Origin: an uncultured Methanosarcinales archaeon
GTDB lineage: Archaea; Nanobdellota; Nanobdellia; Woesearchaeales; GW2011-AR9
Length of the DNA stretch: 45,303 nt
Reading direction: 5' to 3'
Assembly: GCA_964343575.1 (NCBI GenBank)
Contig: CAYFJV010000001.1
Span: 155,402 to 200,704, forward strand
The notes beneath the pieces were generated by a model. The model was not told where the DNA came from and ran no database searches. It was given only the letters and a program-made list of their open reading frames with translations. This document shows, piece by piece, positions 3,475 through 44,120 of this stretch. The translations under genes and the position numbers were made by a program. Numbering within the stretch: the stretch's first letter is position 1; each line of letters begins with the position of its first letter.

Positions 3475-3501
3475 ATGCAATTTCATGATTTTTATCAGAT
3501 A

Positions 3502-8094: not shown

Positions 8095-8209
8095 AATCTA
8101 TGGCTTCTGGGATCTCTTTTGTCTTTTTTTGTTTTTGATTATTTTTTTTGGATTCTTAAAAACTTCATATTCTACAAGGTTGCTTGCACAAAGTTGTCTC
8201 TTCGCTAGC

Positions 8210-8217
8210 TTTATATA
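8210..8217 (+). promoter_or_regulatory. TATA box of surface protein 2
   Basis: TTTATATA ending 27 nt before the ATG at 8244. Confidence 0.6.
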
Positions 8218-8243
8218 CTTAGATTTGCTCTATTCTCTTGTTT

Positions 8244-11200: not shown

Positions 11201-12110
11201 GGCAAATGTAAGTTTGATTAATATGAGTTTGAATGGTGTTGGGACTTTTTTTGGAAATCTGAATGATAGTAGTTTTGATTCTAATGCTCTCTTTAACAAT
11301 TCTGTAGGAGTGAACCTTTCTGATTCCTTTGATAATTCTCTTTTGAATGGTTTTTTCAACAATAGTCTTAATGCAGTTGATAATGCTAACAACAGTTGGA
11401 ACACAAGTTACTCTTGTAGTGATACTTTTGTAAACATTATCGGTGGAAATTGTAGTGCTGGAAATTTTTGGAGCGACTATCTTGGGAATGATACTAACGG
11501 AGATGGGGTTGGAGATACTGAGGTCCCTTATAACAGCTCAGAAAATATCTCTGAAGTGGGAGCAGGAGATTTTCTACCTTTAGTTTATCCTTCTGTGGCT
11601 GAAGAGAGCGGGGGGGATGAGGAGAGTTCTTCTGAGGGTTCAAGCTCTGGGGGGAGTAGTGGCTCTGGAGGAAGCAGCTCCTCGGATCCGGGTGTTGAGT
11701 TCGTTAACAATACGACTATTATAGAAGTAATTGAGATCCAAGAGATTGTTAAAAAAGTGGTTGAAGTTATCGAAGAAGTAGTTGAAGAGGTGATTGTCCC
11801 TGCGCCACCTTCAGATCCAGCACTTACTGGGGCAGCAATAGGAGATGTTTTTGATGTTCCTCCTTGGGCGAGCATTCTCTTTTTAATATGCCTCTCTATA
11901 CTCATTGTTGGAGTTGGCTTTTCTAGGATATATGTTGCTGTTGGTGATAAGGCGGAAAATCTTACTGAGCTGGAGAAGTATGTACAACAAGTAGTTGCTA
12001 TGGGCTTTAGCAAAGAGCAGATTTTTACTCGTTTAGAGCAAGAAGGTTGGGAGGAAGCAGAAGTCTTGGCAGCCTTTGATAAATTGCGAGGAAATTCTTG
12101 GCTTATGTAA
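8244..12110 (+). CDS. Giant surface protein with right-handed beta-helix (PbH1/NosD-like) domains and C-terminal TM anchor
   Basis: MYYKKRGD + TM + LTAAAV; Asn-rich N.I.NN.I repeats; GNFWSDYLGNDTNGDGVGD; Ser/Gly linker, TM helix, then a short helical tail (GFSKEQIFTRLEQEGW). Confidence 0.85.
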   Translation: MYYKKRGDLHIALALALFMFSLVATLLIFQGSIGEKASLSGELTAAAVTVPGLVVDNESLEDLFEQGEGVVGGEEEEQVASDQESEGIGVSAVEMIDGEGSGFGVQAETSSCGTISTDTNLTANIISNGTCFTIGAAGIVIDGQGFTITGDGSGRGIDNSGGHDGVTVRNFGGINNFTNAVYFDGVATSSVTNNSINSSNEDDAISIRILDVSNSNSITGNIIVSQGKKGYGVYVDNSDSNTIENNEIVTDDSYGVFIDTGAEYNIIDWNNITVTEEESTSANDEAIQLWDDWNKIRNNIIRTLESNKQGVNSQGSYNIFKHNIFITNGSSSPAIAMGTFSDNNNITNNTIDTFGALSNGISLSLSSDHYVDSNTITLHNDSAAGIYFDRTDDSTIIHNWINASRSYGIDLAAGANGNVIDNNTIYVNGSVVGISNSFGIRITNLAGTSYDNNFRNNNIYLETEGGIAFHDIDVTAGEFNTLVYNNSFAKLHWADWSSGGLFEDLDINGSMVLGETIILSNNSVSLNASDFDNGKGGQINTTANITFKGLENFSNPIALKDDLFCDDCSGVFEVETGLRVVVQHFSTYSLRNNSLPEISEFGHLPETVQYTDNMTVHVLYEDQDSPTDNATLYFEWYLNESLQYSDTLTVVESGDNATISLDAANYSIGDIINVSVYANDSMNVSSTLWSDTVTITGLIDNAPVVLTHDFNSTLEGNSTQENLECFVLLEDNESSSLEVYWEVYNGTESYNSSSLNLSNNSYENVVNVSSLVTAGEESWTCGILVSDHNQNSSWQNQSITLLPETPPVIASTIFNASTHNNYSSDDINCFGTFLDNQSSSLTAYWEIYNGTELYNSSSLSVSNNSLAGLGSVSSSFTDVGEDWVCGALVSDSITNTSWLNESIIVRTVTQGDVLKSNLTLDENVTCTDDCLFIEDENVTLSLNGNCLIGNGSGIGINSSGNNGFDLIGPGCIMNFSTGVYLESGTEANVSLINMSLNGVGTFFGNLNDSSFDSNALFNNSVGVNLSDSFDNSLLNGFFNNSLNAVDNANNSWNTSYSCSDTFVNIIGGNCSAGNFWSDYLGNDTNGDGVGDTEVPYNSSENISEVGAGDFLPLVYPSVAEESGGDEESSSEGSSSGGSSGSGGSSSSDPGVEFVNNTTIIEVIEIQEIVKKVVEVIEEVVEEVIVPAPPSDPALTGAAIGDVFDVPPWASILFLICLSILIVGVGFSRIYVAVGDKAENLTELEKYVQQVVAMGFSKEQIFTRLEQEGWEEAEVLAAFDKLRGNSWLM

Positions 12111-12188
12111 CTTGGGCTTGTGCTTTTTGTTTAGCTGTGAATTTCTTAGAATTTTTTCGTTTTTTTACATCTTTTTATTCCCGCTATC

Positions 12189-12196
12189 TTTATAAA
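12189..12196 (+). promoter_or_regulatory. TATA box of surface protein 3
   Basis: TTTATAAA ending 27 nt before the ATG at 12223. Confidence 0.6.
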
Positions 12197-12222
12197 GGTA
12201 AAAACTTTGCATCTTGCTATCT

Positions 12223-15200
12223 ATGTACCATAGAAAGAGAGGGGATTTGGGTGCTTCGTTAGTTTTGTTCTTGTTCATGCTAGGGGCAGTTTTCTTTTTT
12301 AGCACGCAGCTTTCTCCAAGTGAGGGTCCAGGAATTACCGCTGCCGTAGTTACAGCCCCAGAGATTGGTTCAGATAATGAGAGTTCTGAAGATTTTTTTG
12401 AACAAGGTGCTGGTAGCGAAGGAGGTGCAGATGATGATGAAGGAGCTTTGGATTCTGAAGAGAGTGATGTTGAGAGTTCCTTAGATCCTATTGAAGACCA
12501 AACTGAAGAGGAGAGTACAGAAGAGGGTGTTGATGAAGAACTTGAAGGTTCTGAAGAAGGCTCTGGAGTAGAAGAAGGAGCAGGAATTCTTGGCTTTGGT
12601 GGCGGTGGAGTTGGAGTTCTTGCATCAGCAAGTATTGCAGGAGCTGTTTTTGAAGACGTTAATGGGGATGGTGTTTTTGATGCAGCAGAGAGCGGGATTG
12701 AGAATATTACTGTTCGGGTATGGAATGATACTGATGGAGATGGTGCGATAAACGCTACTGTGGATGTGGTTCTTTCAACAGTTTTGAGCAATGAGACTGG
12801 AAATTATACCTTCGCTTTGAATACAGGAGATAATTATTCTGTAGATATTAGTGCGGACTTTAATCGTGAACTTGTGAACTACAAGAATACTACTTCTAAG
12901 ACTTCTTATCTTTCTGATCTTTCTGGTGACGATCTTGATGTTGATTTTGGTTTAAAGAGTTTGAGTGCCTCTTTGGGTTTGGTTGATTCAAGCCAAAAGT
13001 ACACAACAGATACTAATGGTCTTAACTTGGGTTATACTGTTGCAGAGAATTTTGGTATGGCGGTGGCAAATATAGGTGATCTTGATGGTGACGGTATAAC
13101 TGATTTTGCAGTAAGTGCTAGTGGTGATGAAACAACGGGAAGTAATGAGGGAGTAATTCATATCATGTTTATGAATGTTAACGGAAGTGTTAATCGGAGT
13201 GTGCTTATAGGTAATGAAACGAATGGTTTTTCTGCTCCTACTATTGAAGATAATGATTTTTTTGGGACCTCCATTGTGAGTTTAGGAGATCTTGATGGTG
13301 ATGGGATAGTTGATCTTGCAGTTGGTGCTGAAGCTGATGAAGTGAGTGATTCTAATGATGGGGCTGTCTATATTCTGTTTATGAATGCTAACGGAAGTGT
13401 GAGTAGTAATCAAGTAATTGGAGATAGTTCTAATGGTTTTGCTCCAGACAATTTGACCAACGCAGACGGTTTTGGATATAGTCTTGCGAACTTAGGTGAT
13501 CTTAATGGTGATGGTGTTGTAGATTTAGCAGTGGGAGCAGATTATGAAGAAGCAGATGGTGGAACCAGTAACGAGGGGGGGTTATACATTCTTTTTATGA
13601 ACTCTAATGGAAGTGTCAACAGTACGGAGTTTATTGCAGAGAATCTTAACGGCTTTGTTCCAGATAATTTAGATTCAAATGACTTTTTTGGGTCTTCTGT
13701 GGATAATATTGGTGATCTTGATGGAGATGGTGTTATTGATCTTGCAGTTGGTGCTAGGGGAGATGAAAATGAGAATTCAAGTTCGGGAGCAGTGTACATC
13801 TTGTTTATGGAGACTAATGGGAGTGTGAAAAATAACACAAAAATTGCCAGTGGTCTTAATGGATTTTACCCCGATGGGGGCGCCCTTCTTTCGAGTGATA
13901 ATTTTGGATCGGCGGTTGCAAATCTTGGTGATCTTGATAATGATGGTATCAATGACCTCGTAGTTGGTGCAGATAGGGATGAAAACGAGGATAGTTCGGA
14001 AGGAGCAATCTATATTTTGTTCTTGAATGGAGATGGGAGTGTAAAGAGCAATCAAAAGATAAGTGATGGCTTGGGAGAATTTAATCCGGGACCGGACCTT
14101 TATGGTCTAGAACTGAATGATTTTTTTGGAGTTTCTATTGATAATGCTGGAGATCTTAATGGAGATGGGATTACCGATCTTATAGTTGGAGCTAACCAGG
14201 ATGAAACAGGGGCTGCGACCTTGTCTTCAGGAGGTTTTTATGTGCTCTACTTGGCGCAAGATGTTGCTTGTGGAGATGCTATCTCTAGTAGTGTCAATCT
14301 TACTGAGAATTTGAGCTCAACTGGAGGGGCTTGTTTGACTGTTAATGCTTCAAACGTTGTTATTGATGGTTCTGGTTTTAGTATGACTGGTAATGCTTCT
14401 TCCGATTCTATCGGAATCAATGTTTCTGGCTTTGAGAATGTGACTATTCAAAATTTTGCTGGAATCACTAACTTTAGTATTGGGGTAAACAGTGATAACG
14501 GAACAACTGGTTTGCTTGTTCAAAATAGCAGTATTGAGACAGCAAACCTTAGTGATGCCTACGCTGTTTACTCTGTAATGGATACCAATTTACGAGTAGA
14601 AGGAAATAATATCACTACTTATGGAAATGATTCTTTTGCTGTTTATCTGATAGATAGTAATGGCTCTAATGTTAGTCAAAATGATATTGTTACGGAAGAT
14701 GCTAACGGAGTTTTTGTAGATGGTGAGGCTTATCATAACTTGATAAGTATGAATAATGTTAGTCTCTCAAATGTTACAGCGACTAGTTCTTTGAATAATA
14801 CCGGAGTTTACGTTGATGGTGATGCAAATAATGTTACTTTCAATAGGATTAATAACAGTGGTTCTGCTCAAGAAGGGATAGTCTTTTTTGAGAATAACTC
14901 TTGGATTGAAGGAAATATCTTTGAAGGAGTTGAAGATCAATCAATTGGGATTTATGGATCAAATTTTACTAATGTTACGGTGGAGAATAACAGTATTCTT
15001 ACTAGTGATGCCAAAGGTATTTCTGTCACTGGAGGAAGCAATAGTACGATTAGTAATAACACCATAACCACTGTTGAATCTGGTTCTGCAGGAATCCAGT
15101 TAGTCTCCACTGTTGAGAGTCATTTTTATAATAACCACATTACCGTTGGCGATTCAAATGGGATTAATATTAGAGAGGAAAATACTCTGAATACTTTTGA

Positions 15201-18048
15201 AGAGAACATTATTACTCTTTCTGGAGCAAGTGAAACGAGAGGTGCTTTTCGTTTTGCAGATGAAGCAAGTACAGAGAACAATACTCTTCTTAACAATAAT
15301 ATGACTTCTAATGATTTAGGAATTTATGATTTAGAAGAGAGTTCGGCTAACTATTTTGTGTACAATAACAGTTCTTTTGGACAAATTTTATGGTTTAACT
15401 TTAGTTCTGGCTCTTTTTCAAGAGATATGGACCTGGATCTAAATGGAAATACTTTTGATATGGAGTTTGGGGTTAAGTTGGATAACAATTCAATTAGTGT
15501 TAATGCTTCTTTAATCTCGGTAAACCCTAACTTGAATGAGACAGTAAATGTGAGCATTTATGGGCTTGATGAATTTGAAAACCCTTTGGCTTTGAGAGAT
15601 AGTTATTACTGTAGTGATTGTCTTGATCTCCATAATACTACGATTGACAGTGAATCTTTTGATTACCACTTTCAGGCAGGGTATCCTGGAAATTTTAGTG
15701 TTGTAAACAATAGTGCTGGTCCTGTTATTTTACAGCATGTTCTTAACACTACAACACTTGGAAATTATAGTGCAGATCCTCAGACAAGTTGGTTGAATAT
15801 AAGTGATAATGATAGTCTTTTTGTGGATGTGCATTGGGAAATCTATGAAAACAGTGTCTTTCAAAACTCTGGAATCTTTTATCAAGTTGAAGTTGGGGAG
15901 TTTAAGAATGTTGCAAACAGAAGTGCTCTTCTTTCAGATGTTGGGGATAACGTTACTGTTGGCCTCTTGGTCTCAGATGGAGAATTTAGCTCTGATTGGA
16001 TAAATGATAGTCTTGTGGTGAGAGATTTTACTGCTGGTGATGTTATCACTGAAGACGTTACTTTTACTAATGATGTTGATTGTCATGGAGATTGTCTTTT
16101 TGTAGGTAGAGATGGAATCACTATCAATATGGCTGGTTATGCTTTGATTGGGAATGGAAGTGGCATTGGAATAAACATAAGTGATTATAGTAATGTTAGC
16201 ATCTTGAATGGACATGTGAGTAATTATAGCATTGATATTTATGCAGACCCTAGTGAGGGAATTGTTCTGAATCAAACAAATGTGAGTGCTGCTGATACAG
16301 GAATCCTTTTTGAAGAGATTAATGAAAGTACTATCACTGAAGGATATATTACTAACAACAGTGTGGGAGTAAATCTTAGTGACTCTCATAATAATGATGT
16401 GTATAACAATTATTTTAACAATACTATCAATGCTGTTGATGAAGAAGATGATAATAACTGGAACACAAGTTATTCTTGTTCTACAAAGCATCGTAATATT
16501 GCTTTTGGAAATTGTACAGGTGGGAACTTCTGGAGTGATTATGAAGGAAATGATACTGATGATGATTATGTAGGAAATACAAGCGTGCCCCATAACAGTT
16601 CAGGGAATATTAATGGGAGTGGAGAGGGGGACAATTATCCTCTCTTAGTTTGTATTGAATCCTGGTCTTGTGGAGATTGGTCTGGTTGTCTTGATAATAT
16701 TCAGACGAGAAGTTGTACTGATTTGAATCTTTGTGGATCAACTGCAACTCAGCCAGATCTTTCTCAATCCTGTAGTGGTTCAAGCAGCTCAGATGATGAT
16801 TCAAGTAGCTCTGATTCAAGTACTTTTAGAGATCTAGATCCTGCAACTCAGGAAGCAATTAAAGACCTTATTAGCGATGCGATCGCTGACGGGAAGATTG
16901 CTTCTTTGAAACAATTAAGAAATGCTTTGCGTTCTGGGAAAGTGAGTCTTTCTACGATTGCTAAGAAAGCAAGCGAGGGAGAAGGTAGTGGAGCAGGAGC
17001 AGCAAGTGGTGTTAGTAGTGATCTTGGAGGGCTTGAAGGAAGTTCAGGTAGTGGGGGGGGGACTTCGGGAAAAAAATCTAGAACTTTGTTAGGACTTACT
17101 TTGGTTAACGATCTTGAAGACCTTTCTTTAGAACTGCAACCACGATTAGAACAAAATCTAGAATCGCTTTCTATTGATGCTGATCTTGCAGTGGTTGAAG
17201 GGAAAATTAAAGAAAAGCTTAGTTTTGAGGGAGATCTTTCCGAGGAAAAGGTGGAGGAAGAATTGCGGCGTTTTGCTTTGCTTGATGAACAAAATGTACT
17301 TCCTTTGATTAATCGAAAAAGTTCGACTTTTTTTACTTCCTCAACTGCTGGTGCCAGTGATAGTTTGCTTACTGGGGCTGTGGTTGGTTTAAGTGCAGAG
17401 GAGGAAAGAGAGTTAGAGGAAAGGCTTGCTAAGTCACTCTCAGGGATTGTTGCAACTTCAGAAGTGGTTGAAGGTGCTCTTTTGGAGGTTCACTTAGAAG
17501 ATGAGGAGAGTCTTGTTGTCGAACCAGGAGAGACTTTGAATACTGATCTTGGATTGCTTGGAGGTATCTCCTTGGAAGGGAGGGAGATTACTCTCTCTTT
17601 GGAAACTGAAGGCGAAGCTGTTGCCCAGCAGAAAGTGGTGCTTCCTGCAAGCGATCTTGGAGCAAATTTAGACCTTTATCAAGATGAGCGTTTCTTTGAT
17701 CTTTATGTTGTTCTCCCAGAAGTCAACGCAGAATATTCGCTTGAGCATGAATATTATATTGAAGTTGATGTTCGCCAACAAAGTGATACTTTGCTAGCAC
17801 AATTCTTTCCAATTAAGTATGCTTTTGTGAACTCTGCTCAGCGTTTATTCAAGGGGAATGATCTTCTTTACTTGGAAACTTTTGGACCTTACTCTATAGC
17901 TGAAGATGAACAATATCTCTTAGCTCAGCAATTTGCTTATGATGCTGAACGTTACAGTGAAGGCTTGCAAGAGATTCATGTGCGTGTTTATCAAGATGGG
18001 CTTCTTGTTAATGAAGATATCTTTGTAGAGGATTTTGTGTCTGAGTGA
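12223..18048 (+). CDS. Giant surface protein: SdrD-B-like domain, FG-GAP (integrin-alpha-like) repeats, beta-helix domains, Cys-rich TSP1-like motif
   Basis: MYHRKRGD + TM + ITAAVV; FEDVNGDGVFD; six FG...GDL(D/N)(G/N)DG..D(L/F).V(G/S)A repeats; NosD-like GNFWSDY; CIESWSCGDWSGC...QTRSCTDLNLCG. Confidence 0.87.
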   Translation: MYHRKRGDLGASLVLFLFMLGAVFFFSTQLSPSEGPGITAAVVTAPEIGSDNESSEDFFEQGAGSEGGADDDEGALDSEESDVESSLDPIEDQTEEESTEEGVDEELEGSEEGSGVEEGAGILGFGGGGVGVLASASIAGAVFEDVNGDGVFDAAESGIENITVRVWNDTDGDGAINATVDVVLSTVLSNETGNYTFALNTGDNYSVDISADFNRELVNYKNTTSKTSYLSDLSGDDLDVDFGLKSLSASLGLVDSSQKYTTDTNGLNLGYTVAENFGMAVANIGDLDGDGITDFAVSASGDETTGSNEGVIHIMFMNVNGSVNRSVLIGNETNGFSAPTIEDNDFFGTSIVSLGDLDGDGIVDLAVGAEADEVSDSNDGAVYILFMNANGSVSSNQVIGDSSNGFAPDNLTNADGFGYSLANLGDLNGDGVVDLAVGADYEEADGGTSNEGGLYILFMNSNGSVNSTEFIAENLNGFVPDNLDSNDFFGSSVDNIGDLDGDGVIDLAVGARGDENENSSSGAVYILFMETNGSVKNNTKIASGLNGFYPDGGALLSSDNFGSAVANLGDLDNDGINDLVVGADRDENEDSSEGAIYILFLNGDGSVKSNQKISDGLGEFNPGPDLYGLELNDFFGVSIDNAGDLNGDGITDLIVGANQDETGAATLSSGGFYVLYLAQDVACGDAISSSVNLTENLSSTGGACLTVNASNVVIDGSGFSMTGNASSDSIGINVSGFENVTIQNFAGITNFSIGVNSDNGTTGLLVQNSSIETANLSDAYAVYSVMDTNLRVEGNNITTYGNDSFAVYLIDSNGSNVSQNDIVTEDANGVFVDGEAYHNLISMNNVSLSNVTATSSLNNTGVYVDGDANNVTFNRINNSGSAQEGIVFFENNSWIEGNIFEGVEDQSIGIYGSNFTNVTVENNSILTSDAKGISVTGGSNSTISNNTITTVESGSAGIQLVSTVESHFYNNHITVGDSNGINIREENTLNTFEENIITLSGASETRGAFRFADEASTENNTLLNNNMTSNDLGIYDLEESSANYFVYNNSSFGQILWFNFSSGSFSRDMDLDLNGNTFDMEFGVKLDNNSISVNASLISVNPNLNETVNVSIYGLDEFENPLALRDSYYCSDCLDLHNTTIDSESFDYHFQAGYPGNFSVVNNSAGPVILQHVLNTTTLGNYSADPQTSWLNISDNDSLFVDVHWEIYENSVFQNSGIFYQVEVGEFKNVANRSALLSDVGDNVTVGLLVSDGEFSSDWINDSLVVRDFTAGDVITEDVTFTNDVDCHGDCLFVGRDGITINMAGYALIGNGSGIGINISDYSNVSILNGHVSNYSIDIYADPSEGIVLNQTNVSAADTGILFEEINESTITEGYITNNSVGVNLSDSHNNDVYNNYFNNTINAVDEEDDNNWNTSYSCSTKHRNIAFGNCTGGNFWSDYEGNDTDDDYVGNTSVPHNSSGNINGSGEGDNYPLLVCIESWSCGDWSGCLDNIQTRSCTDLNLCGSTATQPDLSQSCSGSSSSDDDSSSSDSSTFRDLDPATQEAIKDLISDAIADGKIASLKQLRNALRSGKVSLSTIAKKASEGEGSGAGAASGVSSDLGGLEGSSGSGGGTSGKKSRTLLGLTLVNDLEDLSLELQPRLEQNLESLSIDADLAVVEGKIKEKLSFEGDLSEEKVEEELRRFALLDEQNVLPLINRKSSTFFTSSTAGASDSLLTGAVVGLSAEEERELEERLAKSLSGIVATSEVVEGALLEVHLEDEESLVVEPGETLNTDLGLLGGISLEGREITLSLETEGEAVAQQKVVLPASDLGANLDLYQDERFFDLYVVLPEVNAEYSLEHEYYIEVDVRQQSDTLLAQFFPIKYAFVNSAQRLFKGNDLLYLETFGPYSIAEDEQYLLAQQFAYDAERYSEGLQEIHVRVYQDGLLVNEDIFVEDFVSE
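13045..14250 (+). repeat. Six FG-GAP coding repeats
   Basis: Recurring ggtgatcttgatggtga(c/t)gg-like DNA and GDLDGDG-like peptide at about 200-220 nt spacing. Confidence 0.85.
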
Positions 18049-19787: not shown

Positions 19788-20423
19788 CTAACAAACTCCA
19801 TCTGCATCAATGTAAAGGTTTCCTTCATTACTAATGCATAAAGCTCCTGCAGCTCCGCTTCCATCTGGTGCGTCTCCATCAGTGCTTTCTGGTAAGTCTT
19901 GCATGTTAACTTCACCACAAGTTGTAATCTGGTTGTCTGCAGAACTTTCACAGTAGTTTGCTTGACCTTCGGCGTTGATTACAACTGCATGTTCGTGCTG
20001 AGCTTTTGCATTGTAGCCAATTGCTGTAGAGTAATCTCCTGTTGCGCTGGCAAATGCACCTAAAGCTAAAGCGGTGTTTTCAGCTTCACTGTACCAACCT
20101 ACAGCGACAGTACCAGTTCCGTCAGCTTTAGCCATTGATCCAAGTGCCATCCCTCCTGCACTTGCTTCTCCACTTCCAAAGACCATAGAGCCGTGATCTT
20201 CTGCTCTTGCGCCATCACCAAAAGCAAAAGAATCTGTGCCATGTGCTTCTGCAAACCTTCCAGCTGCAAGAGAATATTCACCAAAAGCTCCACCAGCGTA
20301 GACACCATTTGGAGTGAAATCAATTGCTCCGATTGCAGTTCCCTTACCAAGAGCAAATGTAGCCATAGCTAGTATAGCAATCATTGCAATTGACATTACC
20401 AATATTTTTGTTATTTTTTTCAT
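19788..20423 (-). CDS. Secreted protein with YadA/Hia head-like repeats
   Basis: Sec signal peptide; about 14-aa repeats such as AEAHGTDSFAFG and ASATGDYSTAIG, ending YNAKAQHEHAVVI; GGTGATG RBS. Confidence 0.75.
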   Translation of the reverse strand: MKKITKILVMSIAMIAILAMATFALGKGTAIGAIDFTPNGVYAGGAFGEYSLAAGRFAEAHGTDSFAFGDGARAEDHGSMVFGSGEASAGGMALGSMAKADGTGTVAVGWYSEAENTALALGAFASATGDYSTAIGYNAKAQHEHAVVINAEGQANYCESSADNQITTCGEVNMQDLPESTDGDAPDGSGAAGALCISNEGNLYIDADGVC

Positions 20424-29065: not shown

Positions 29066-29175
29066 TGATTAAAGTTATTGTCTTTGATTAAAATTTCCCA
29101 TTCTAAATTTATTTGTTCTTATCAATAAGTTTTATTCTCCTAAAACCATAAAAAGAAAGCTCTTTTTGTAAGCTC

Positions 29176-29778
29176 ATGCAGATAGTTGCTCATTTAGAAA
29201 AACCGTCGTTGAAAGCAGAATTTTTAGCTGCAAAATCAGTACCTCATTTACACATTAAAGATTTTTTAGATGAAAAGAGTGCAGCAGAGCTGTTAAAAGT
29301 TGTAGAAAAGCTAGACTTTGAAGAAAAAGAAAGTGATTTGTTTCACTTTTGGCAGAGCAAAAATTTGAAGATTTTGGATGATGAAAAAAACAATCAACTC
29401 TTAAAATTTTTTGATCTAATAAATTCTAGCAAAGTTAAAAACTTTCTTTCCAGCATTTCTGGCTTGAAAATTACAAATGCTGATTTTCATGCAACTAAAT
29501 ATGTGAAAACAAATTATTTGTTGCCTCATGATGATCAGTTAGAAGGGAGAAAAATTGCTTACATTTATTATCTTAGTAATTTGAAAAAAGAAGAAGGAGG
29601 GGCTTTTGAATTCTTTTCTGTTGATGAAAAAAACAAGCCACTTCTCGTCGAGAAAAGTGTACTTCCTGTTGCAAACTCTTTGTTTCTTTTTGAAGTTTCT
29701 GACAAATCTTTTCATCAGGTAAGTGAAGTGTTAAAAGATGCCCAGCGTTATGCACTTGCGGGGTGGTTTTATGGATAA
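29176..29778 (+). CDS. 2OG-Fe(II) prolyl-hydroxylase-like protein, similar to the OGFOD1/Tpa1 N-terminal catalytic domain
   Basis: HDD...H metal triad and 2OG-binding Arg: LLPHDDQLEGRKIAYIYYL...SFHQVSEV...RYALAGWFYG. Confidence 0.88.
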   Translation: MQIVAHLEKPSLKAEFLAAKSVPHLHIKDFLDEKSAAELLKVVEKLDFEEKESDLFHFWQSKNLKILDDEKNNQLLKFFDLINSSKVKNFLSSISGLKITNADFHATKYVKTNYLLPHDDQLEGRKIAYIYYLSNLKKEEGGAFEFFSVDEKNKPLLVEKSVLPVANSLFLFEVSDKSFHQVSEVLKDAQRYALAGWFYG

Positions 29779-30349
29779 TTTACACCCACTTTACTTACAG
29801 GAAGGAGTGCAAAAACAAGTTAGAGAACAGCTTTTTTCACAGGGATTTGTGCAGTTATCCTCGCTATTTTCAGTCTCAGAACTTAGAAAACTAAATAAAA
29901 TTATGCGAACTTCTGGAAAAATAAAGAGATATAATCCAGATAAATTTTCTTTTACAAAAATTTTGTTTAGCGAGGAAGAAAAGAAACTTCTTTTTGATAA
30001 AATCGGCGATTTGTTGACATGGATTGCTGGAAAAAAAGTTAAGATTTTAGAACTTGAAGGAAGAGAGTTCAAACACCGTGACTACACACTTCTTCACGAC
30101 GAAGAAAGTTTGAAAAATTATGCGAAAAAAGTAGGGAAAAGGCACTTTTTTTGTTTAGAATTAAGTTCTGATTGGCTTGAAGAAAGTGGCGGACAAGATT
30201 ATTTTGTTTTTGATGAAGAAACCTTTATTTTACCAGTTTTAGAAAACAGTTTTTCAGTAGTTCTCGAGGTAGAGAAACATTTTACTAAGTATGTAAATTG
30301 CTTAGCTGATGGTAGAAAAAGAGTTCTTATAATGGGTTTTTTCCATTAA
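29771..30349 (+). CDS. Protein resembling the OGFOD1/Tpa1 C-terminal (Ofd1_CTDD) degenerate oxygenase domain
   Basis: LHPLYL, DYTLLHD, W.EESGG, ENSFSVV and FTKYVN motifs; the ATG at 29771 overlaps the upstream stop (ATGGATAA) and follows GGGTGG. Confidence 0.8.
   Translation: MDNLHPLYLQEGVQKQVREQLFSQGFVQLSSLFSVSELRKLNKIMRTSGKIKRYNPDKFSFTKILFSEEEKKLLFDKIGDLLTWIAGKKVKILELEGREFKHRDYTLLHDEESLKNYAKKVGKRHFFCLELSSDWLEESGGQDYFVFDEETFILPVLENSFSVVLEVEKHFTKYVNCLADGRKRVLIMGFFH
29884..29911. repeat. Intragenic dif-arm copy with TAA-N6-TTA geometry
   Basis: TAGAAAACTAA-ATAAAA-TTATGCGAACT; the right arm is an exact consensus copy and the left arm is degenerate. Confidence 0.45.
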
Positions 30350-30378: not shown

Positions 30379-31320
30379 CTAAGAATAAAGAGGAACAGTG
30401 CCAGTTTCTAATTCTCCAAGAGATCTTCTAAGACCACTGGTACAAAGACCGCCTTCTCTTTTTGGTAAAACAAGAAGCTCAAGATCCTCTAAACCAGCTC
30501 TTACTTCAGAAACTCTTCTTTGATCATTAAGAAAAAAAGCTTTTATTCCTAAATAATGAAGCAGTGCTTGTCCTGCACTTCTCCTATCTAAAAATACTGC
30601 TCTTTCTTTAGATCCTTGAACTTTTCCTGAAACAAGTTCTTGAAAAAATGCTTCCCCTTCTCGACAGGTTTTTGCAAAGCTTGCGAACCTTTCCATTTGA
30701 GCATTAAAATGAGGGTCTTCTTCCAAAGAGACTATGCTATAGATTATTCCCTCTTCAGGGGGACCGGTCTCTCTGACTCTAGCAATCTGATAGCGTAAAC
30801 CAAGGATTCTTGCACCAAATTCAGCAGTATGTGCTTGTCTAAATTCCTGACTAAGATCTGTTCTTCTTCCAAGAAGAACCAAAGCTTCAAGATAAAGTTT
30901 TTCTGCTCTTAAAAGAGCATCAACTATTGAGGAAGATACCCTTGGATCATCAAGCTTCCCATGATCTTTATAGAAACAGAGACATGCGGTTCTAAGCGTC
31001 TGAGCTTGAGCAAGAGGAAGATCAAAATTATCTGGGAAACGTTCCCTGATCATACCCATTGTTCCAGCACTTTCATCTCTCAAGATACTGAGATAATTTT
31101 TAATTGGGAACTTTTCTTCGCGAGGAGAGTATGAAGGATAAGCTCTTCTAACAAATTCACTAAGTGAGATTAGTCCTCTCGTTGTACTCAATGATAACTG
31201 GCCATATTCCAATCTTATTTTCTTGCTGAAGTGAATTCCTTCTTCGTTTATTCTTCTGGCAGTTTCTTCGTCAAAAAGCTGGAAGTTAACTCCTCCTATT
31301 GATTGGCTTGGAATTAGCAT
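30379..31320 (-). CDS. Hypothetical protein (helical), divergent from xerA
   Basis: 313-aa ORF; no family recognised. Confidence 0.7.
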   Translation of the reverse strand: MLIPSQSIGGVNFQLFDEETARRINEEGIHFSKKIRLEYGQLSLSTTRGLISLSEFVRRAYPSYSPREEKFPIKNYLSILRDESAGTMGMIRERFPDNFDLPLAQAQTLRTACLCFYKDHGKLDDPRVSSSIVDALLRAEKLYLEALVLLGRRTDLSQEFRQAHTAEFGARILGLRYQIARVRETGPPEEGIIYSIVSLEEDPHFNAQMERFASFAKTCREGEAFFQELVSGKVQGSKERAVFLDRRSAGQALLHYLGIKAFFLNDQRRVSEVRAGLEDLELLVLPKREGGLCTSGLRRSLGELETGTVPLYS

Positions 31321-31451: not shown

Positions 31452-32285
31452 ATGAGAAGAGGTGGAGCGAGAGATGTTGATCTTTCTGAATTAGAAACCG
31501 AATTAGAACTACGGGGGATGGCTGATAATACCATCAAGTTGTATTTCAAATACAACGCACGTTTTCTCAAATTTGCTGATAAAACTCCAGAGCAAGTCAC
31601 CAAAACTGATGTCAAAAAATTTCTTGCCAGCCTTGTGAAGAAAAAAACAGCGCCAAGAACCATTAACATGGTACGCTCGGCGCTCCTCTTTTATTACAAC
31701 GAAGTTTTGGGTAAGGATTTTGTAGCAGTAAAGATTCCAAAAGTTAAGCGCTCGCTTCCAGTTTTCTTAAGTAAGGAAGAAATAAGTCATTTGATTGTGC
31801 AAGCAGGAACAGCAAAGAGTCAGCTCATCATTAAGTTTCTCTACAGTAGCGGTTTGCGCGTCTCTGAGCTTTGTTCACTTCGCATAGAGGATCTTGAGCT
31901 TAGCGATAGGAAAGGCTTTGTACGTGATGGGAAAGGGGGTAAGGATCGCTTATTTTTCATCTCTGAAGGCTTGTCTACAGAATTGGCTGCTTTTTTGGGA
32001 CAGCTTAAGCAAGGTTATGTCTTTCCAAACCATTATGGTGAGCGTATGACTGAGCGTAATGTGCAAAAGATCATTAGTCGTGCAGGCAAGAAAGCAGGAA
32101 TTATGAAACAAGTAACCCCCCATAAACTTCGTCATTCTTTTGCTACGCATTTACATGATTCTGGAACCTCTATTCGTACTATTCAGGAATTGCTTGGTCA
32201 TGCTAATCTACAAACCACGGAGATTTATACGCATGTTTCGCAGCAGCGGCTTAGAAATGTGAAAAATCCTTTAGAGGATATTTAA
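31452..32285 (+). CDS. xerA: XerA-like tyrosine recombinase
   Basis: SAM-like N-terminal domain; catalytic R (GLRVSE), K (GKGGKDR), HKLRH, LGH and Y (TTEIY); lacks the integron-integrase insertion. Confidence 0.9.
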   Translation: MRRGGARDVDLSELETELELRGMADNTIKLYFKYNARFLKFADKTPEQVTKTDVKKFLASLVKKKTAPRTINMVRSALLFYYNEVLGKDFVAVKIPKVKRSLPVFLSKEEISHLIVQAGTAKSQLIIKFLYSSGLRVSELCSLRIEDLELSDRKGFVRDGKGGKDRLFFISEGLSTELAAFLGQLKQGYVFPNHYGERMTERNVQKIISRAGKKAGIMKQVTPHKLRHSFATHLHDSGTSIRTIQELLGHANLQTTEIYTHVSQQRLRNVKNPLEDI

Positions 32286-35777: not shown

Positions 35778-36014
35778 ATGGCAGGATATGATCCAAGTTT
35801 AGATAAAGAATTATTCAAAAAAAGTATTGAGTTCGAACGCTCAGTGATTGATGTTAAAATTATGTCTTACAACGAAGGTGTTTCAAAAGTGCAGATTGCA
35901 AGGCAATCTCGCAAAGCTGATGGAAGTTTGGGTTTTGCAAAGCTTGGAAGACTTACTAAAGAAGAACTTGAGAAAGTATTGCCTGCATTGCAAGAAGCGC
36001 TTGGGCAGCTTTAG
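35778..36014 (+). CDS. Small conserved-looking protein, possibly PC4/YdbC-like ssDNA-binding fold
   Basis: GAGGAGTGA RBS; SYNEGVSKVQIAR...FAKLGRLTKEEL beta-beta-helix pattern. Confidence 0.6.
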   Translation: MAGYDPSLDKELFKKSIEFERSVIDVKIMSYNEGVSKVQIARQSRKADGSLGFAKLGRLTKEELEKVLPALQEALGQL

Positions 36015-36036
36015 AACTATTGAAAGTTTTTTCAAA

Positions 36037-36657
36037 ATGTCCTTTGCAAACGTTTTACTTTCTTTTCTTTTAGGATTTCTTTTTGCAGAGTTTATTGGCT
36101 ATTTTTTACACATGCTTTTACACAGTAACAAAGTTCGTTTTCTAAGTAGAAACCATATGATTCATCATCTACAAATCTATGGGCCAAAACAAAAACAACT
36201 TGCTAAAGAGTACAAAAACTCTGTTCAAAATCGTTTTGCTTTGATGAACATTGGTACGGAGTGGATCTTTCCTGTCTTTCTAGTTGAGTGTAGCATCTTT
36301 TTAGTTGGTTTTCTTCTTGGAGTTCCAGTTGCTTATATCTCTTTATTTGCTGGGGCAACGCTTCTTTGGGGCTACTTTCTCTTTGCTTACATGCATGCAA
36401 AGTTACATGTTGAAGGCTTCTGGATGGAGGAAAGTTGGTTTTTTAAGAAGTGGTTTTTACGGGCGCGAAAACTTCATCTGATCCATCATCACCGTTTGGA
36501 TAATGTTGGTAGAATGAACACAAATTATGGTATTTGTTTCTTCTTTTTTGATAGCATCTTTGGAAGTCTTAGAAAAGAGTTTGAAGCTTTTAATGAAAAT
36601 GGATTTAAGGCTGCGAAAAAGAGATACGCTTATCTTTTTGATGATAAAAACTTATAA
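36037..36657 (+). CDS. Fatty-acid hydroxylase / sterol desaturase superfamily membrane protein
   Basis: His boxes HMLLH, HMIHH, HAKLH and HLIHHH, plus NYG...FDSIFGS; start taken as the ATG at 36037. Confidence 0.88.
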   Translation: MSFANVLLSFLLGFLFAEFIGYFLHMLLHSNKVRFLSRNHMIHHLQIYGPKQKQLAKEYKNSVQNRFALMNIGTEWIFPVFLVECSIFLVGFLLGVPVAYISLFAGATLLWGYFLFAYMHAKLHVEGFWMEESWFFKKWFLRARKLHLIHHHRLDNVGRMNTNYGICFFFFDSIFGSLRKEFEAFNENGFKAAKKRYAYLFDDKNL

Positions 36658-41157: not shown

Positions 41158-41313
41158 TTGTCCTAAGAGGCGAAAGGCACCTGCCAGGCGACGCCTTATA
41201 GGTTCCTGTCCGCCATTCAATTTTCTTCCGCTGGTCGAAAATGGCTCCCAGGAAGATCACTCCTTGTTCTCGTTGTGGTCGCAATTGGGCAGCGGCGCTC
41301 TCTCTTAGGACAA
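41158..41313. ncRNA. Candidate structured RNA of unknown class
   Basis: GC-rich island closed by a perfect 12-bp inverted repeat TTGTCCTAAGAG/CTCTTAGGACAA, with nested stems CTGCC/GGCAG, GCGAC/GTCGC, TTCCTG/CAGGAA and GCCATT/AATGGC. Confidence 0.55.
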
Positions 41314-41910
41314 AGTTGCTTTGTTTGTCTTCTTTTGATTGAAGAAGCCCAGTGCTATAAAAATACTCCCTAAAAGTAGCATAATCACTAAAATCTTTAC
41401 TGCCATCCAAAGGAAAAAGGATTCTGGATAGGTAGAGATAAGAAAAGAATCTAGAGGAAACTGCCAGTTTCCTTGGGGAAATAAAAGGTAGTGGAATGTT
41501 GCAAAACTTTTTTGAAAGCTTATTGCCACAGCTAAGAGCACGAGAAGAGGTAGGGTAATTGTTGTTAAACCTCCCCAGAAAAAGAGTTTACTGAGCATTG
41601 CTGGACTCTTTCTGTAGGAAGTAATGATAAGCGTTGAGAGCAAGAGAGTTGTCCAAAAAAGAATGTTCTGTACCTTAAGAAGTTCATGCACATCATACAT
41701 ATGAGAAATTTCTGCATCACTTGCTCCTGCTTCTTGTAGGGAGGTTTCGAAAGCTTGAGGATTGTTCAAAAAATCAATTCCTAACTGCTGTGTTTCTGTG
41801 AGGGGAGTTATGAGAAGTGCCAACTTGTAAGCTAAGATGATAAAAAGAATAGTTATGAAAACTAAAAAACAAAGACACAAAGGACCTTCTTTGTTCTTGG
41901 GTGTTCTCAT
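41305..41910 (-). CDS. DUF1461 / Lit (lipoprotein intramolecular transacylase)-like membrane protein
   Basis: Four TM helices; SHMYDV and FHYLLFPQGNWQF...LI..YPESFF motifs. Confidence 0.8.
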   Translation of the reverse strand: MRTPKNKEGPLCLCFLVFITILFIILAYKLALLITPLTETQQLGIDFLNNPQAFETSLQEAGASDAEISHMYDVHELLKVQNILFWTTLLLSTLIITSYRKSPAMLSKLFFWGGLTTITLPLLVLLAVAISFQKSFATFHYLLFPQGNWQFPLDSFLISTYPESFFLWMAVKILVIMLLLGSIFIALGFFNQKKTNKATLS

Positions 41911-42222
41911 TCTCAGAAAGACTTATTCTTAGCTTTAAATGGCTTTCTCAAGTGTAAAGAGGCAGAGATTGGCTGGGAAATAGTTAAATTATGGAGAATA
42001 TATTTACAGTATATTCTAAAGTTTTATATATGCCTTTTTGAGATTTTTACTCCTAAAGAGGTGTGCGTGCTTTTTAGCGCGAGTGCTCTTAGGGGTGTGG
42101 CCAGGAAATGAGTTGTGTTTTCTTTCCTGGCTCTTTTTTTCGACTTTTTTCTATAAGAGTATTCTTTTCTTTCTAAAAATATTTAAAATTAGATCTTTTC
42201 CCGATTTTTGTGGCAAGTACTT

Positions 42223-42388
42223 ATGGTGGAAGAAGAAGCACCGCTCAGATCCAAAAGATGGAGAATCTTTAGAGACTATAGGGAAGGACCTTGGTGTTAC
42301 AAGAGAGCGAGTAAGACAAATAGAGTTAAAGGCCATGGGAAAACTGCGCCATCCCTCTAGATCAAGAAGATTAGAACAATTTCGCTGA
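42223..42388 (+). pseudogene. Remnant of a bacterial primary sigma factor (RpoD) region 4.2
   Basis: 42257-42388 encodes [43 protein letters not shown]. The nearby ATG at 42223 is out of frame, and the upstream in-frame ORF looks non-coding. Confidence 0.7.
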
Positions 42389-42422: not shown

Positions 42423-43037
42423 TTAAGCTTTAGTCTTTGCTGCAGAGTAACGTTTGCTTACTTCTTCCCAATTGATTAACTTGAAGAAATTATCAATCCA
42501 CTCTCCACGTCTGTTCTGGTACTTAAGATAATACGCATGTTCCCAAACATCGCAAACCATAATCGGCTTTAGACCTTGTACCCACACTTTCTGATGGTTC
42601 TCAACTGCAAAGACATGCAAAGAACCATGTTCACAAGATGCAAGTACTCCCCAACCAGATCCTTCAACTGCAGCAGTTGCCTTCTTGAACTGCATCTCAA
42701 ACTTTTCCCAAGAGCCAAACCATTGCTCAATCGCAGCAAGAAGCTCACCTTCTGCCTTGTTGTCTTCTTTTCCTGGCCTCATGTTTTCCCAAAACAAAGA
42801 GTGAAGTAAATGACCAGCACCATGGAATGCTTGTTCTCGCTCCCAATGTTTGATTAGAGAAAAGTCACCTGTTTCTCTGGCTTCTGCTAACTTTTTCATA
42901 GCGTTGTTTAATCCCTTTACATAACCTGCATGGTGTTTGTCATGATGAATCTCTACAGTTTGTTTATCATAGTAAGGTTCAAGTGCATCATATGTGTAAG
43001 GTAATTCTGGTAAAGTAAATGCTTTTTTGTCTGTCAT
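42423..43037 (-). CDS. sod: Fe/Mn superoxide dismutase
   Basis: LPELPY, HHDKHH, H..FW, GSGW and DVWEHAYY motifs; GGAGG RBS. Confidence 0.97.
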   Translation of the reverse strand: MTDKKAFTLPELPYTYDALEPYYDKQTVEIHHDKHHAGYVKGLNNAMKKLAEARETGDFSLIKHWEREQAFHGAGHLLHSLFWENMRPGKEDNKAEGELLAAIEQWFGSWEKFEMQFKKATAAVEGSGWGVLASCEHGSLHVFAVENHQKVWVQGLKPIMVCDVWEHAYYLKYQNRRGEWIDNFFKLINWEEVSKRYSAAKTKA

Positions 43038-43049
43038 TTTATTATCCTC

Positions 43050-43628
43050 CTAAATCTTTCCCACCAAGTCCATCCCTGGCCTTAGTGTCTTCTCTCCTGG
43101 TTTCCAATTCATTGGACAGACTTCTCCACCATGCGCTGCAACATACTGCGCTGCTTGCAACTTACGGATAAGTTCAGCGGTACTTCTCCCAATACTGTTG
43201 TCATGCAGCTCGAATGCTTTGAGAACTCCCTCTGGATCGATAACAAAAGTTCCTCGAAGAGAGAGTCCTTCTTCCTCAATATAAGTTCCATAATCTCGAC
43301 AAACTTGTCCAGTTGGATCAGCTAGCATTGGAAACTTAATCTTATTAATGGTTGGAGAGTGGTCCCACCATGCTTTGTGTACAAAAGCAGTATCAGTACT
43401 TACACTGATTACTTCTGCGTTAAGTCCCTTAAGTTGCTCGTAGTGATCTGCAAGATCTCCAAGCTCTGTTGGACAAACAAAAGTGAAGTCTGCGGGATAG
43501 AAGAAAAGGATTACCCATTTCCCTTTGTAGTCTTGAAGTGAGACTTGTTTTGTTTCATTGTTTACAAATGCCTGGGCAGTAAAGCCAGGTGCTGGATCGT
43601 TTATTTTTACCATTCTGTTTTCCTCCAT
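43050..43628 (-). CDS. ahpC: 2-Cys peroxiredoxin AhpC
   Basis: FYPADFTFVCPTE and GEVCP motifs. Confidence 0.96.
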   Translation of the reverse strand: MEENRMVKINDPAPGFTAQAFVNNETKQVSLQDYKGKWVILFFYPADFTFVCPTELGDLADHYEQLKGLNAEVISVSTDTAFVHKAWWDHSPTINKIKFPMLADPTGQVCRDYGTYIEEEGLSLRGTFVIDPEGVLKAFELHDNSIGRSTAELIRKLQAAQYVAAHGGEVCPMNWKPGEKTLRPGMDLVGKI

Positions 43629-43652
43629 TTAATTATTATTTTTAGCTGTTGT

Positions 43653-44120
43653 TTATTGTTCTTTGATAAAGTCAAGTACTTCTTTACTATGTGTTGGCGG
43701 CTTTACCTTCTCATAGACTTTGATTACTTTTTTGTTTTCATCAAGTACAAAGGTCATTCGGGCAATTCCCATATAGCTTCTTCCCATGAATTTTTTCTCT
43801 CCATAGACACCATACTTGCTTGAGACTTTGAAATCAGTATCTGAAAGTAAGGGGAAGCTAAGCCCATGCTTTTCACAAAACTTTGTTTTTGATTTTTCAT
43901 CTCCACCGCTGATGCCAATAATTGTGGTGTCAAGTTTTTTGAAACTTGATAAGTCCCTGTTGAACATATTTGCTTCAACAGTACAACCAGGAGTATTATC
44001 TTTAGGATAAAAATAAATGACTGTGAATTTGCTCGTTATCTCTTTGAGTTTGTGGACTCTTCCATCCTTGTCTGGAAGTGCAAAATCAGGAGCATTCTTT
44101 CCTTCTGTAACTGGATTCAT
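43653..44120 (-). CDS. bcp: BCP/PrxQ peroxiredoxin
   Basis: YFYPKDNTPGCTVEA, FPLLSD and R.TFV motifs. Confidence 0.94.
   Translation of the reverse strand: MNPVTEGKNAPDFALPDKDGRVHKLKEITSKFTVIYFYPKDNTPGCTVEANMFNRDLSSFKKLDTTIIGISGGDEKSKTKFCEKHGLSFPLLSDTDFKVSSKYGVYGEKKFMGRSYMGIARMTFVLDENKKVIKVYEKVKPPTHSKEVLDFIKEQ

Follow-up and report, generated by a model that had tools for sequence, protein, structure and literature searches.

OGFOD1 hydroxylates Pro62 of human ribosomal protein uS12 (RPS23), and both the yeast and the human enzyme depend on O2. Whether an enzyme of this kind also exists in archaea is the question raised by two overlapping open reading frames (ORFs), here gene 1 and gene 2, on contig CAYFJV010000001.1 (assembly GCA_964343575.1), which belongs to a genome placed in the Woesearchaeales (Nanobdellota). 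They lie in the 45,303-nucleotide stretch of DNA that was analysed, which we call the window, and a first-pass annotation had read them as a split homologue of OGFOD1/Tpa1. From sequence comparison and predicted fold, we conclude that the pair is most probably a two-subunit archaeal form of the known uS12 prolyl hydroxylase family.

Horita et al. (2015) describe the OGFOD1 subfamily as 'found only in eukaryotes' and the prokaryotic prolyl hydroxylases as single-domain proteins. A 2015 review in the Journal of Biological Chemistry places protein modification by 2-oxoglutarate (2OG) oxygenases in eukaryotes and many prokaryotes 'but not archaea'. No paper describing an archaeal OGFOD1 was found in full-text searches and the supplements of PMC12872458 (bioRxiv supplements were outside the scope). 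Database pipelines already name relatives of gene 1 'Rps23 Pro-64 3,4-dihydroxylase Tpa1-like' or 'prolyl 3-hydroxylase / prolyl 3,4-dihydroxylase', which tempers the significance of the find. What the locus adds, together with about 70 similar ones, is that archaea possess both halves of the uS12 hydroxylase, encoded by two coupled genes and with the active site intact.

Gene 1 is, judged by its sequence, a complete 2OG/Fe(II) oxygenase of the OGFOD1 type with its active site intact. It scores 93.3 bits on the Pfam family 2OG-FeII_Oxy_4 (PF13661; curated cut-off 27) and covers profile positions 2-97 of 98. When compared with all sequences of the Protein Data Bank (PDB) using HMMER, it matched human OGFOD1 and three Tpa1 entries and nothing else (4/4). 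The human match (4nhx, E 1.7e-28) joins gene 1 residues 24-200 to chain residues 81-259, and the Tpa1 matches have E ~2e-10. The strings that the first-pass annotation had named are real in this alignment, where LLPHDDQLEGRKIAYIYYL stands against LLCHDDELEGRRIAFILYL, SFHQVSEV is identical and GWFYG faces GWFHG; its assignment of gene 1 to OGFOD1/Tpa1 rather than to generic bacterial oxygenases is upheld. The chain numbering of the PDB entry is offset by 20 (chain His175 is His155 in Horita et al., 2015). In that numbering the metal triad and 2OG-binding residues of OGFOD1 are His155, Asp157, His218, Arg230 and Tyr169 (Horita et al., 2015); gene 1 His118, Asp120 and His180 align with the triad, and Arg191 and Tyr132 with the 2OG-binding Arg230 and Tyr169. 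Leu115 of gene 1, invariant in an alignment of 37 gene 1 sequences, aligns with OGFOD1 Leu152, a residue typical of prolyl 3-hydroxylases, where 4-hydroxylases have Tyr (Horita et al., 2015). Among 77 distinct N-terminal relatives drawn from genomic loci, every one keeps the triad and 76 keep Arg191 (the remaining one has a gap).

The AlphaFold model of gene 1 (predicted local distance difference test score, pLDDT, 94.4) gives the same picture. Its best eight PDB matches in Foldseek are OGFOD1/Tpa1 structures (E 3e-17 to 3e-14, TMq 0.85-0.88), and the structural alignment with OGFOD1 has 33% identity. Generic prolyl hydroxylases come next, from E 4e-11, about six orders of magnitude behind.

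Gene 2 is a homologue of the second, non-catalytic domain at the C-terminus of OGFOD1/Ofd1/Tpa1 and lacks the metal triad. A search of 1.84 billion representative proteins gave 177 relatives of gene 2 at E up to 1e-3. Among the 150 listed, 141 have 99-220 aa and nine have 426-595 aa; all nine long proteins carry 2OG-FeII_Oxy_4 followed by Ofd1_CTDD, and gene 2 has its best match in their C-terminal half. The four that come with organism names are eukaryotic (a foraminifer, a nematomorph protein named 'OGFOD1-like', a fungus and a member of a nematomorph cluster). Five of the six short relatives that were scanned pass the Ofd1_CTDD cut-off, at 39-70 bits. When 37 of the short relatives were combined into a profile, it matched human OGFOD1 (E 3.9e-40) in two colinear C-terminal blocks (chain 288-387 and 452-546, or human ~268-367 and 432-526) between which it passes over the human insert at ~368-431. 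The profile finds Tpa1 and the isolated C-terminal domain of Ofd1 (6e0t) as well (E ~1e-10), and its motifs INxxYL, YTLLHD and FxKYVN stand against human INPTYL, YTLIHD and FVKHIN. The best nine Foldseek matches of the predicted model of gene 2 (pLDDT 93.8) are OGFOD1, Ofd1-CTD and Tpa1, with TMq 0.74 against the isolated Ofd1 C-terminal domain. Profile and fold agree with the earlier proposal that gene 2 is the counterpart of the C-terminal domain.

With 28% identity (E 8e-7), the two genes of the pair are distant paralogues of each other. A catalytic gene 2 was considered and rejected: His109, Glu111 and a nearby Arg align with the His, Asp and Arg of gene 1, but the distal His is Thr172, and none of the positions aligned with the triad is conserved in the gene 2 family (His in 21/76 members, Asp or Glu in 10/76, the distal His in 3/76). 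The near-invariant residues of the family are Tyr105, Asp110, Gly141, Tyr174 and Asn176. Many relatives of gene 1 open with the motif W-(I/L)-N-x-x-Y-L, with which gene 2 and the C-terminal domain of the human protein (INPTYL) start as well; it is lacking in the gene 1 of the window and its same-genus relatives. A motif common to both halves fits their origin by duplication.

The point at which the pair is split corresponds to the linker of the human protein. In human numbering, gene 1 extends to Gly239 and the gene 2 family begins at about residue 268, and OGFOD1 is divided into an N-terminal domain (24-238), a linker (239-269) and a C-terminal domain (270-542) (Horita et al., 2015). Because the edges of the split coincide with that linker, the archaeal genes correspond exactly to the two domains, in the same order and with the linker absent, as had been claimed from the sequence alone.

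The arrangement is conserved. Loci were collected with the gene 1 alignment from one genome per prokaryotic species, using the pattern [YFH]LLPHDD[QR]L, which favours close relatives. Of the 75 loci retrieved, 70 have gene 1 followed by gene 2 on the same strand and none is fused; three of the other five stop at a contig end, and two (L080 and L086) have no gene 2 in more than 2.4 kb downstream. The genes overlap by 8 nt in 37 of the paired loci and by 11 nt in 17; the rest have overlaps of 1, 4, 14, 20, 35, 38 or 47 nt, or gaps of 1-85 nt, with one gap of 768 nt. A gene 1 homologue lies directly upstream of gene 2 in 11/11 loci examined from other relatives, and in the tree of both halves (see below) the N and C halves show congruent sub-clades. 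A search among longer gene 1 relatives for fused prokaryotic forms returned three proteins, two of them named as eukaryotic and one unnamed. Five fused proteins are of unnamed origin (P0198, P0204, P0211, P0212 and P0253); the nearest named relatives of P0198 (428 aa) are all eukaryotic and nearly all annotated as OGFOD1. The split is real and old, and its conservation across related genomes excludes an assembly error.

The first-pass annotation had also argued for translational coupling from an 8-nt overlap with a ribosome-binding site, and both features are present. The overlap, ATGGATAA at 29771-29778, comprises the last codons and the stop of gene 1, whose 3' end reads GGG TGG TTT TAT GGA TAA and whose protein ends in GWFYG. 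The ATG of gene 2 takes its AT from the end of the Tyr199 codon and its G from the start of the Gly200 codon, and the Shine-Dalgarno (SD)-like GGGTGG, 4 nt upstream of it, is the Gly196-Trp197 codons of gene 1. The frame of gene 2 is open from 29738, and the ATG at 29771 gives MDNLHPLYL. GGNTGG followed after 4-9 nt by ATG recurs in 68 of 79 distinct related junctions. Given this conservation, the C-terminal G-W-F-(H/Y)-G of gene 1 would double as ribosome-binding site and start of gene 2, and we read the pair as translationally coupled.

What, then, would the pair do? We lean towards the view that the two genes make a two-subunit, O2-dependent prolyl hydroxylase of the OGFOD1/Tpa1 type that acts on the organism's own uS12. 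Gene 1 would be the Fe(II)- and 2OG-dependent catalytic subunit and gene 2 a catalytically dead paralogue of the same fold that serves as its partner, with the role proposed for the eukaryotic C-terminal domain, namely packing on the catalytic domain and binding substrate or partner. Coupled translation would provide for equimolar synthesis of the subunits, and the heterodimer would, with O2, hydroxylate the proline in the KQPNSA loop at the ribosomal decoding centre (Pro57 of the uS12 ORF in L088). We infer that the two proteins form a heterodimer, that it is enzymatically active and that uS12 is its substrate, as well as any consequence for decoding. The uS12 gene of the genome lies at 1495-1914 (-) of L088, and its target loop is KQPNSAMRK, within IEAKQPNSAMRK (longer stretch, VQIEAKQPNSAMRKCARV). 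It agrees at 8/9 positions with the eukaryotic loop, which we take to be KQPNSAIRK. The enzyme would be small, intron-free and naturally in two pieces, which makes the role of the puzzling dead domain testable by mixing subunits; O2-dependent hydroxylation of the ribosomal decoding centre outside eukaryotes likewise becomes testable.

Several observations weigh against this assignment. In the profile check that had been proposed for both genes, gene 1 passed the cut-off; gene 2 alone scored 26.7 bits on Pfam Ofd1_CTDD (PF10637; E 4.6e-6), 0.3 bits short of the cut-off of 27. From a longer start it scored 26.4 bits, and phmmer with gene 2 against the PDB retrieved no OGFOD1 entry. In gene 1, Ala193 takes the place of the Ser in the human RXS motif. 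Because the proline loop of uS12 is universal, it does not discriminate between substrates. Isolated Tpa1 was inactive on uS12 peptides in vitro (Horita et al., 2015), and thus substrate recognition in the OGFOD1/Tpa1 family is not simple.

The distribution of the pair counts on the same side. In an even sample of the phylum (401 genomes, all at least 90% complete) a second-domain gene was found at E up to 1e-15 in 73 genomes (58/281 genera), so that the pair is patchy and dispensable; all 73 carriers share a family, order or class with the window. In a set of 41 genomes, made up of that of the window and 40 relatives, a gene 2 homologue is present in 13 and absent from 28. In one genome of the same genus (G001; L002, 902-1504), a TAA at 1448 replaces the Gln181 codon of gene 1, right after the distal His, and an extra T near the 3' end changes GGWFYE-stop to GGLVL-stop, while gene 2 is intact. 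This is likely to be a decaying catalytic subunit, or else errors in the metagenome-assembled genome. In favour of the assignment, the window itself encodes an Fe/Mn superoxide dismutase and two AhpC/TSA peroxiredoxins (42423-44120 (-), 12-14 kb downstream of the pair) and a fatty-acid-hydroxylase-family protein (35848-36657 (+)), and thus the organism is equipped for exposure to O2. Superoxide dismutase was found in 25 of the 41 genomes, in 11/13 with the pair and 14/28 without it, counts from kin that are not independent. Within the family of the window the rates are alike, 9/11 with the pair and 10/13 without, and we rejected an association between the pair and superoxide dismutase.

Of the other explanations, the one that departs least from uS12 hydroxylation keeps the two-subunit oxygenase and changes its substrate (another ribosomal protein, a translation factor or a small molecule), or makes it mainly an O2 sensor acting through the non-catalytic subunit. 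There is precedent for both, since the bacterial prolyl hydroxylase PPHD acts on EF-Tu and fission-yeast Ofd1 has been described as an O2 sensor. The substrate of the pair is itself only predicted, generic prolyl hydroxylases including the Pseudomonas EF-Tu hydroxylase are the next fold matches, and gene 1 has a weak, sub-threshold NCBIfam match to the peptide-modifying 2OG oxygenase YhhC (50.6 bits; cut-off 150). The archaeal and eukaryotic forms are moreover separate deep clades, with room for functional divergence. These points have to be set against the much greater closeness to OGFOD1 than to any other hydroxylase (the 33% identity of the structural alignment), the retention of the Leu of the 3-hydroxylase type, the retention of the whole two-domain architecture that is specific to uS12 hydroxylases, and the near-identity of the organism's own uS12 loop to the eukaryotic one. 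We regard a different substrate or a sensory role as a fairly unlikely alternative to uS12 hydroxylation.

The overlap could also be taken as a site of programmed +1 ribosomal frameshifting that yields a single fused chain. In 66/70 pairs the frame of gene 2 is shifted by +1 from that of gene 1, and at TGG TTT TAT GG a Phe-tRNA could slip forward by one base, pair again and carry on at the ATG; upstream of the Phe codon lies the SD-like GGGTGG, an arrangement comparable to the RF2 frameshift site. The +1 relation follows, however, simply from the position of the ATG within the conserved (H/Y)-G codons, and TTT, the codon capable of slipping, is not favoured at this site: the Phe codon in 58 W-F-x-ATG junctions is TTC in 31 and TTT in 27, compared with 63% TTT overall in gene 1 ORFs, and neither a stop nor a rare codon follows it directly. 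Some loci have gaps (1-85 nt, 768 nt in one), and in three the two frames stand in another relation, so that coupling cannot require a frameshift; we consider frameshifting very improbable. Lower still is the probability, which we judge close to nil, that a fused gene was broken by an assembly or sequencing frameshift or is a decaying pseudogene. Overlapping ORFs in different frames are what a 1-nt indel would give, and one same-genus genome does have a damaged gene 1. Yet two ORFs are found at 70/75 independent loci from different species, with varying overlaps and gaps and no fusion, and every matched frame in the 401 genomes has at most 297 aa. Gene 2 also starts at its domain start and gene 1 ends at its domain end, with no linker-coding sequence between them, and both ORFs of the window are intact with their catalytic residues complete. 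The statement in the first-pass annotation that the pair is not one frameshifted ORF is thus sustained, by comparison of loci and not by reads.

Among described enzymes, human OGFOD1 (PDB 4NHX/4NHY; a trans-3-prolyl hydroxylase of uS12/RPS23 Pro62) is the best fold match of both archaeal halves, and its two double-stranded beta-helix domains are arranged as in the pair. It is one chain, whereas the archaeal form is two polypeptides from overlapping ORFs in different frames, and its 31-residue linker (239-269) and the insert in its C-terminal domain (~368-431) are missing in the pair. The archaeal pair totals 392 aa compared with 542 for OGFOD1. Saccharomyces cerevisiae Tpa1 and Schizosaccharomyces pombe Ofd1 (a uS12 prolyl 3,4-dihydroxylase and 3-hydroxylase; PDB 3KT1, 3MGU, 4NHK and 6E0T) belong to the same family, with the TMq values given above between Tpa1 and gene 1, but they are fused and larger (chains of 633-647 residues). 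The C-terminal domains of these fungal proteins bind Ett1/Nro1 (Horita et al., 2015); no counterpart of these partners came up for the archaeal pair, although none was searched for.

The single-domain prokaryotic prolyl hydroxylases, such as Pseudomonas PPHD (PDB 4J25 and 4IW3), are of the same superfamily and also active on the translation apparatus. They are much more distant from the pair (E ~1e-10 compared with 1e-17; 17-18% identity), have no dead paralogous partner, and are 4-hydroxylases with Tyr where the OGFOD1 family has Leu. The bacterial ribosomal oxygenase YcfD/RoxA, named by Horita et al. (2015), is an arginyl hydroxylase of uL16 and thus a prokaryotic precedent for modifying a ribosomal protein by O2-dependent hydroxylation. 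A member of the JmjC-type subfamily, it differs from the archaeal pair in fold context, residue and target, and no sequence relation to it turned up in the searches made with the pair.

The existence of split and fused forms raises the question of which came first, and the pair bears on the origin of the tandem-domain enzyme. Our tree of the two halves comprises 41 prokaryotic pairs (five fixed choices and every second one of the other 72 among 77 distinct pairs) and 19 fused proteins (nine from named eukaryotes and ten unnamed); eukaryotic sampling is thin, with animals, fungi, two rhizarians and the unnamed sequences. In a quick search the N- and C-terminal halves separate at SH-aLRT 100, and the fused proteins form one clade in each half (SH-aLRT 99 and 100). 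Both the duplication and the second copy's loss of catalysis thus predate the divergence of split and fused forms.

The free quick tree leaves the prokaryotic rows unresolved around the eukaryotic clade. Holding those rows together gave a higher likelihood (+52 lnL for the N halves and +37 lnL for the C halves), and monophyly of the prokaryotic forms is not rejected (p-AU 0.925 and 0.863, respectively). A nesting of eukaryotes among archaea, which we had considered, is unsupported given these likelihoods. In the best trees found, with each half serving as root for the other, the split archaeal and the fused eukaryotic forms are sister groups, which argues against recent transfer from any sampled eukaryote. 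The phylogeny that was to decide on a 'pre-fusion form' placed the two forms as sisters, which does not order fusion and fission, and a pre-fusion form is neither supported nor rejected by these trees. We treat as unlikely the more extended scenario in which the pair represents the pre-fusion state (a tandem duplicate that lost catalysis and became an obligate partner, with eukaryotic OGFOD1 arising by gene fusion) and in which, in addition, these DPANN archaea hydroxylate the proline of their own uS12 with O2. If it were true, oxygen-tuned decoding accuracy would be older than eukaryotes.

Named records of carriers are Woesearchaeota, Nanoarchaeia or 'archaeon', and many third-party annotation records are labelled 'uncultured Methanosarcinales'. 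McrA was not found in five genomes with the latter label that were checked, and these have 0.9-1.4 Mb; thus the label is unreliable. Three of the loci (L046, L014 and L015) bear bacterial labels. L046 ('bacterium', 3626-5207) is flanked by PCNA and a TFIIS-type zinc ribbon, and the contig of L014 ('Buchananbacteria'; L089, 1819-8116) has a three-domain ATP-dependent DNA ligase and a proteasome-like ORF. Carriers among bacteria of the candidate phyla radiation were accordingly rejected for L046 and L014, which look archaeal by their neighbours. The apparent bacterial and methanogen carriers are probably DPANN contigs.

The coordinates of the pair are collected in Table 1. With the 110-nt spacer on its 5' side and on its 3' side a convergent gene, which ends at 30379, 29 nt past gene 2, the pair is a self-contained two-gene unit. 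The genes around it (PAC2, TYW3 and ribosomal protein L11) are of archaeal type, and the source assembly has 1.21 Mb in 6 contigs and is 95% complete. The G+C content of the pair, 31.9%, is the lowest among the genes of the window that were examined (39.4 ± 2.4% for 29 other ORFs), and 1.1 kb downstream, at 31452-32285, there is a tyrosine recombinase that carries phage-integrase domains. In L002 and L003, from the same genus, gene 2 is followed by ORFs of similar size, orientation and position, whose match to the ORF at 30379-31320 was judged by eye. Because of these ORFs, a recent insertion of the pair seems unlikely despite the low G+C content and the nearby recombinase.

Table 1. Features of the gene pair and its junction, in window coordinates.
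Feature	Position	Strand	Description or basis
Gene 1	29176-29778	+	200 aa; putative catalytic subunit, equivalent of the OGFOD1 N-terminal domain (human ~61-239)
Gene 2	29771-30349	+	192 aa; second double-stranded beta-helix domain (human ~268-526)
His118-Asp119-Asp120 codons (HxD of the metal triad)	29527-29535	+	Sequence and alignment
His180 codon (distal metal-binding histidine)	29713-29715	+	Aligns with human His218
Arg191 codon (predicted to bind the 2OG C-5 carboxylate)	29746-29748	+	Aligns with human Arg230
Coupling junction (as read here)	SD-like GGGTGG 29761-29766; ATG 29771-29773; TAA 29776-29778	+	Sequence
AT-rich spacer, 110 nt (presumed operon promoter region)	29066-29175	+	ORF map and sequence

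Elsewhere in the window, three consecutive giant ORFs of 1539, 1290 and 1944 aa (3475-18048 (+)) carry Laminin_G_3, bacterial Ig, NosD/beta-helix and FG-GAP domains, and are presumably surface or adhesion proteins of an episymbiont. Domains of bacterial type are also found in this archaeal window at 19788-20423 (-), 41305-41910 (-) and 42038-42388 (+): YadA head repeats, a homologue of the lipoprotein intramolecular transacylase Lit, and, in a small protein, a helix-turn-helix of sigma-70 region 4.

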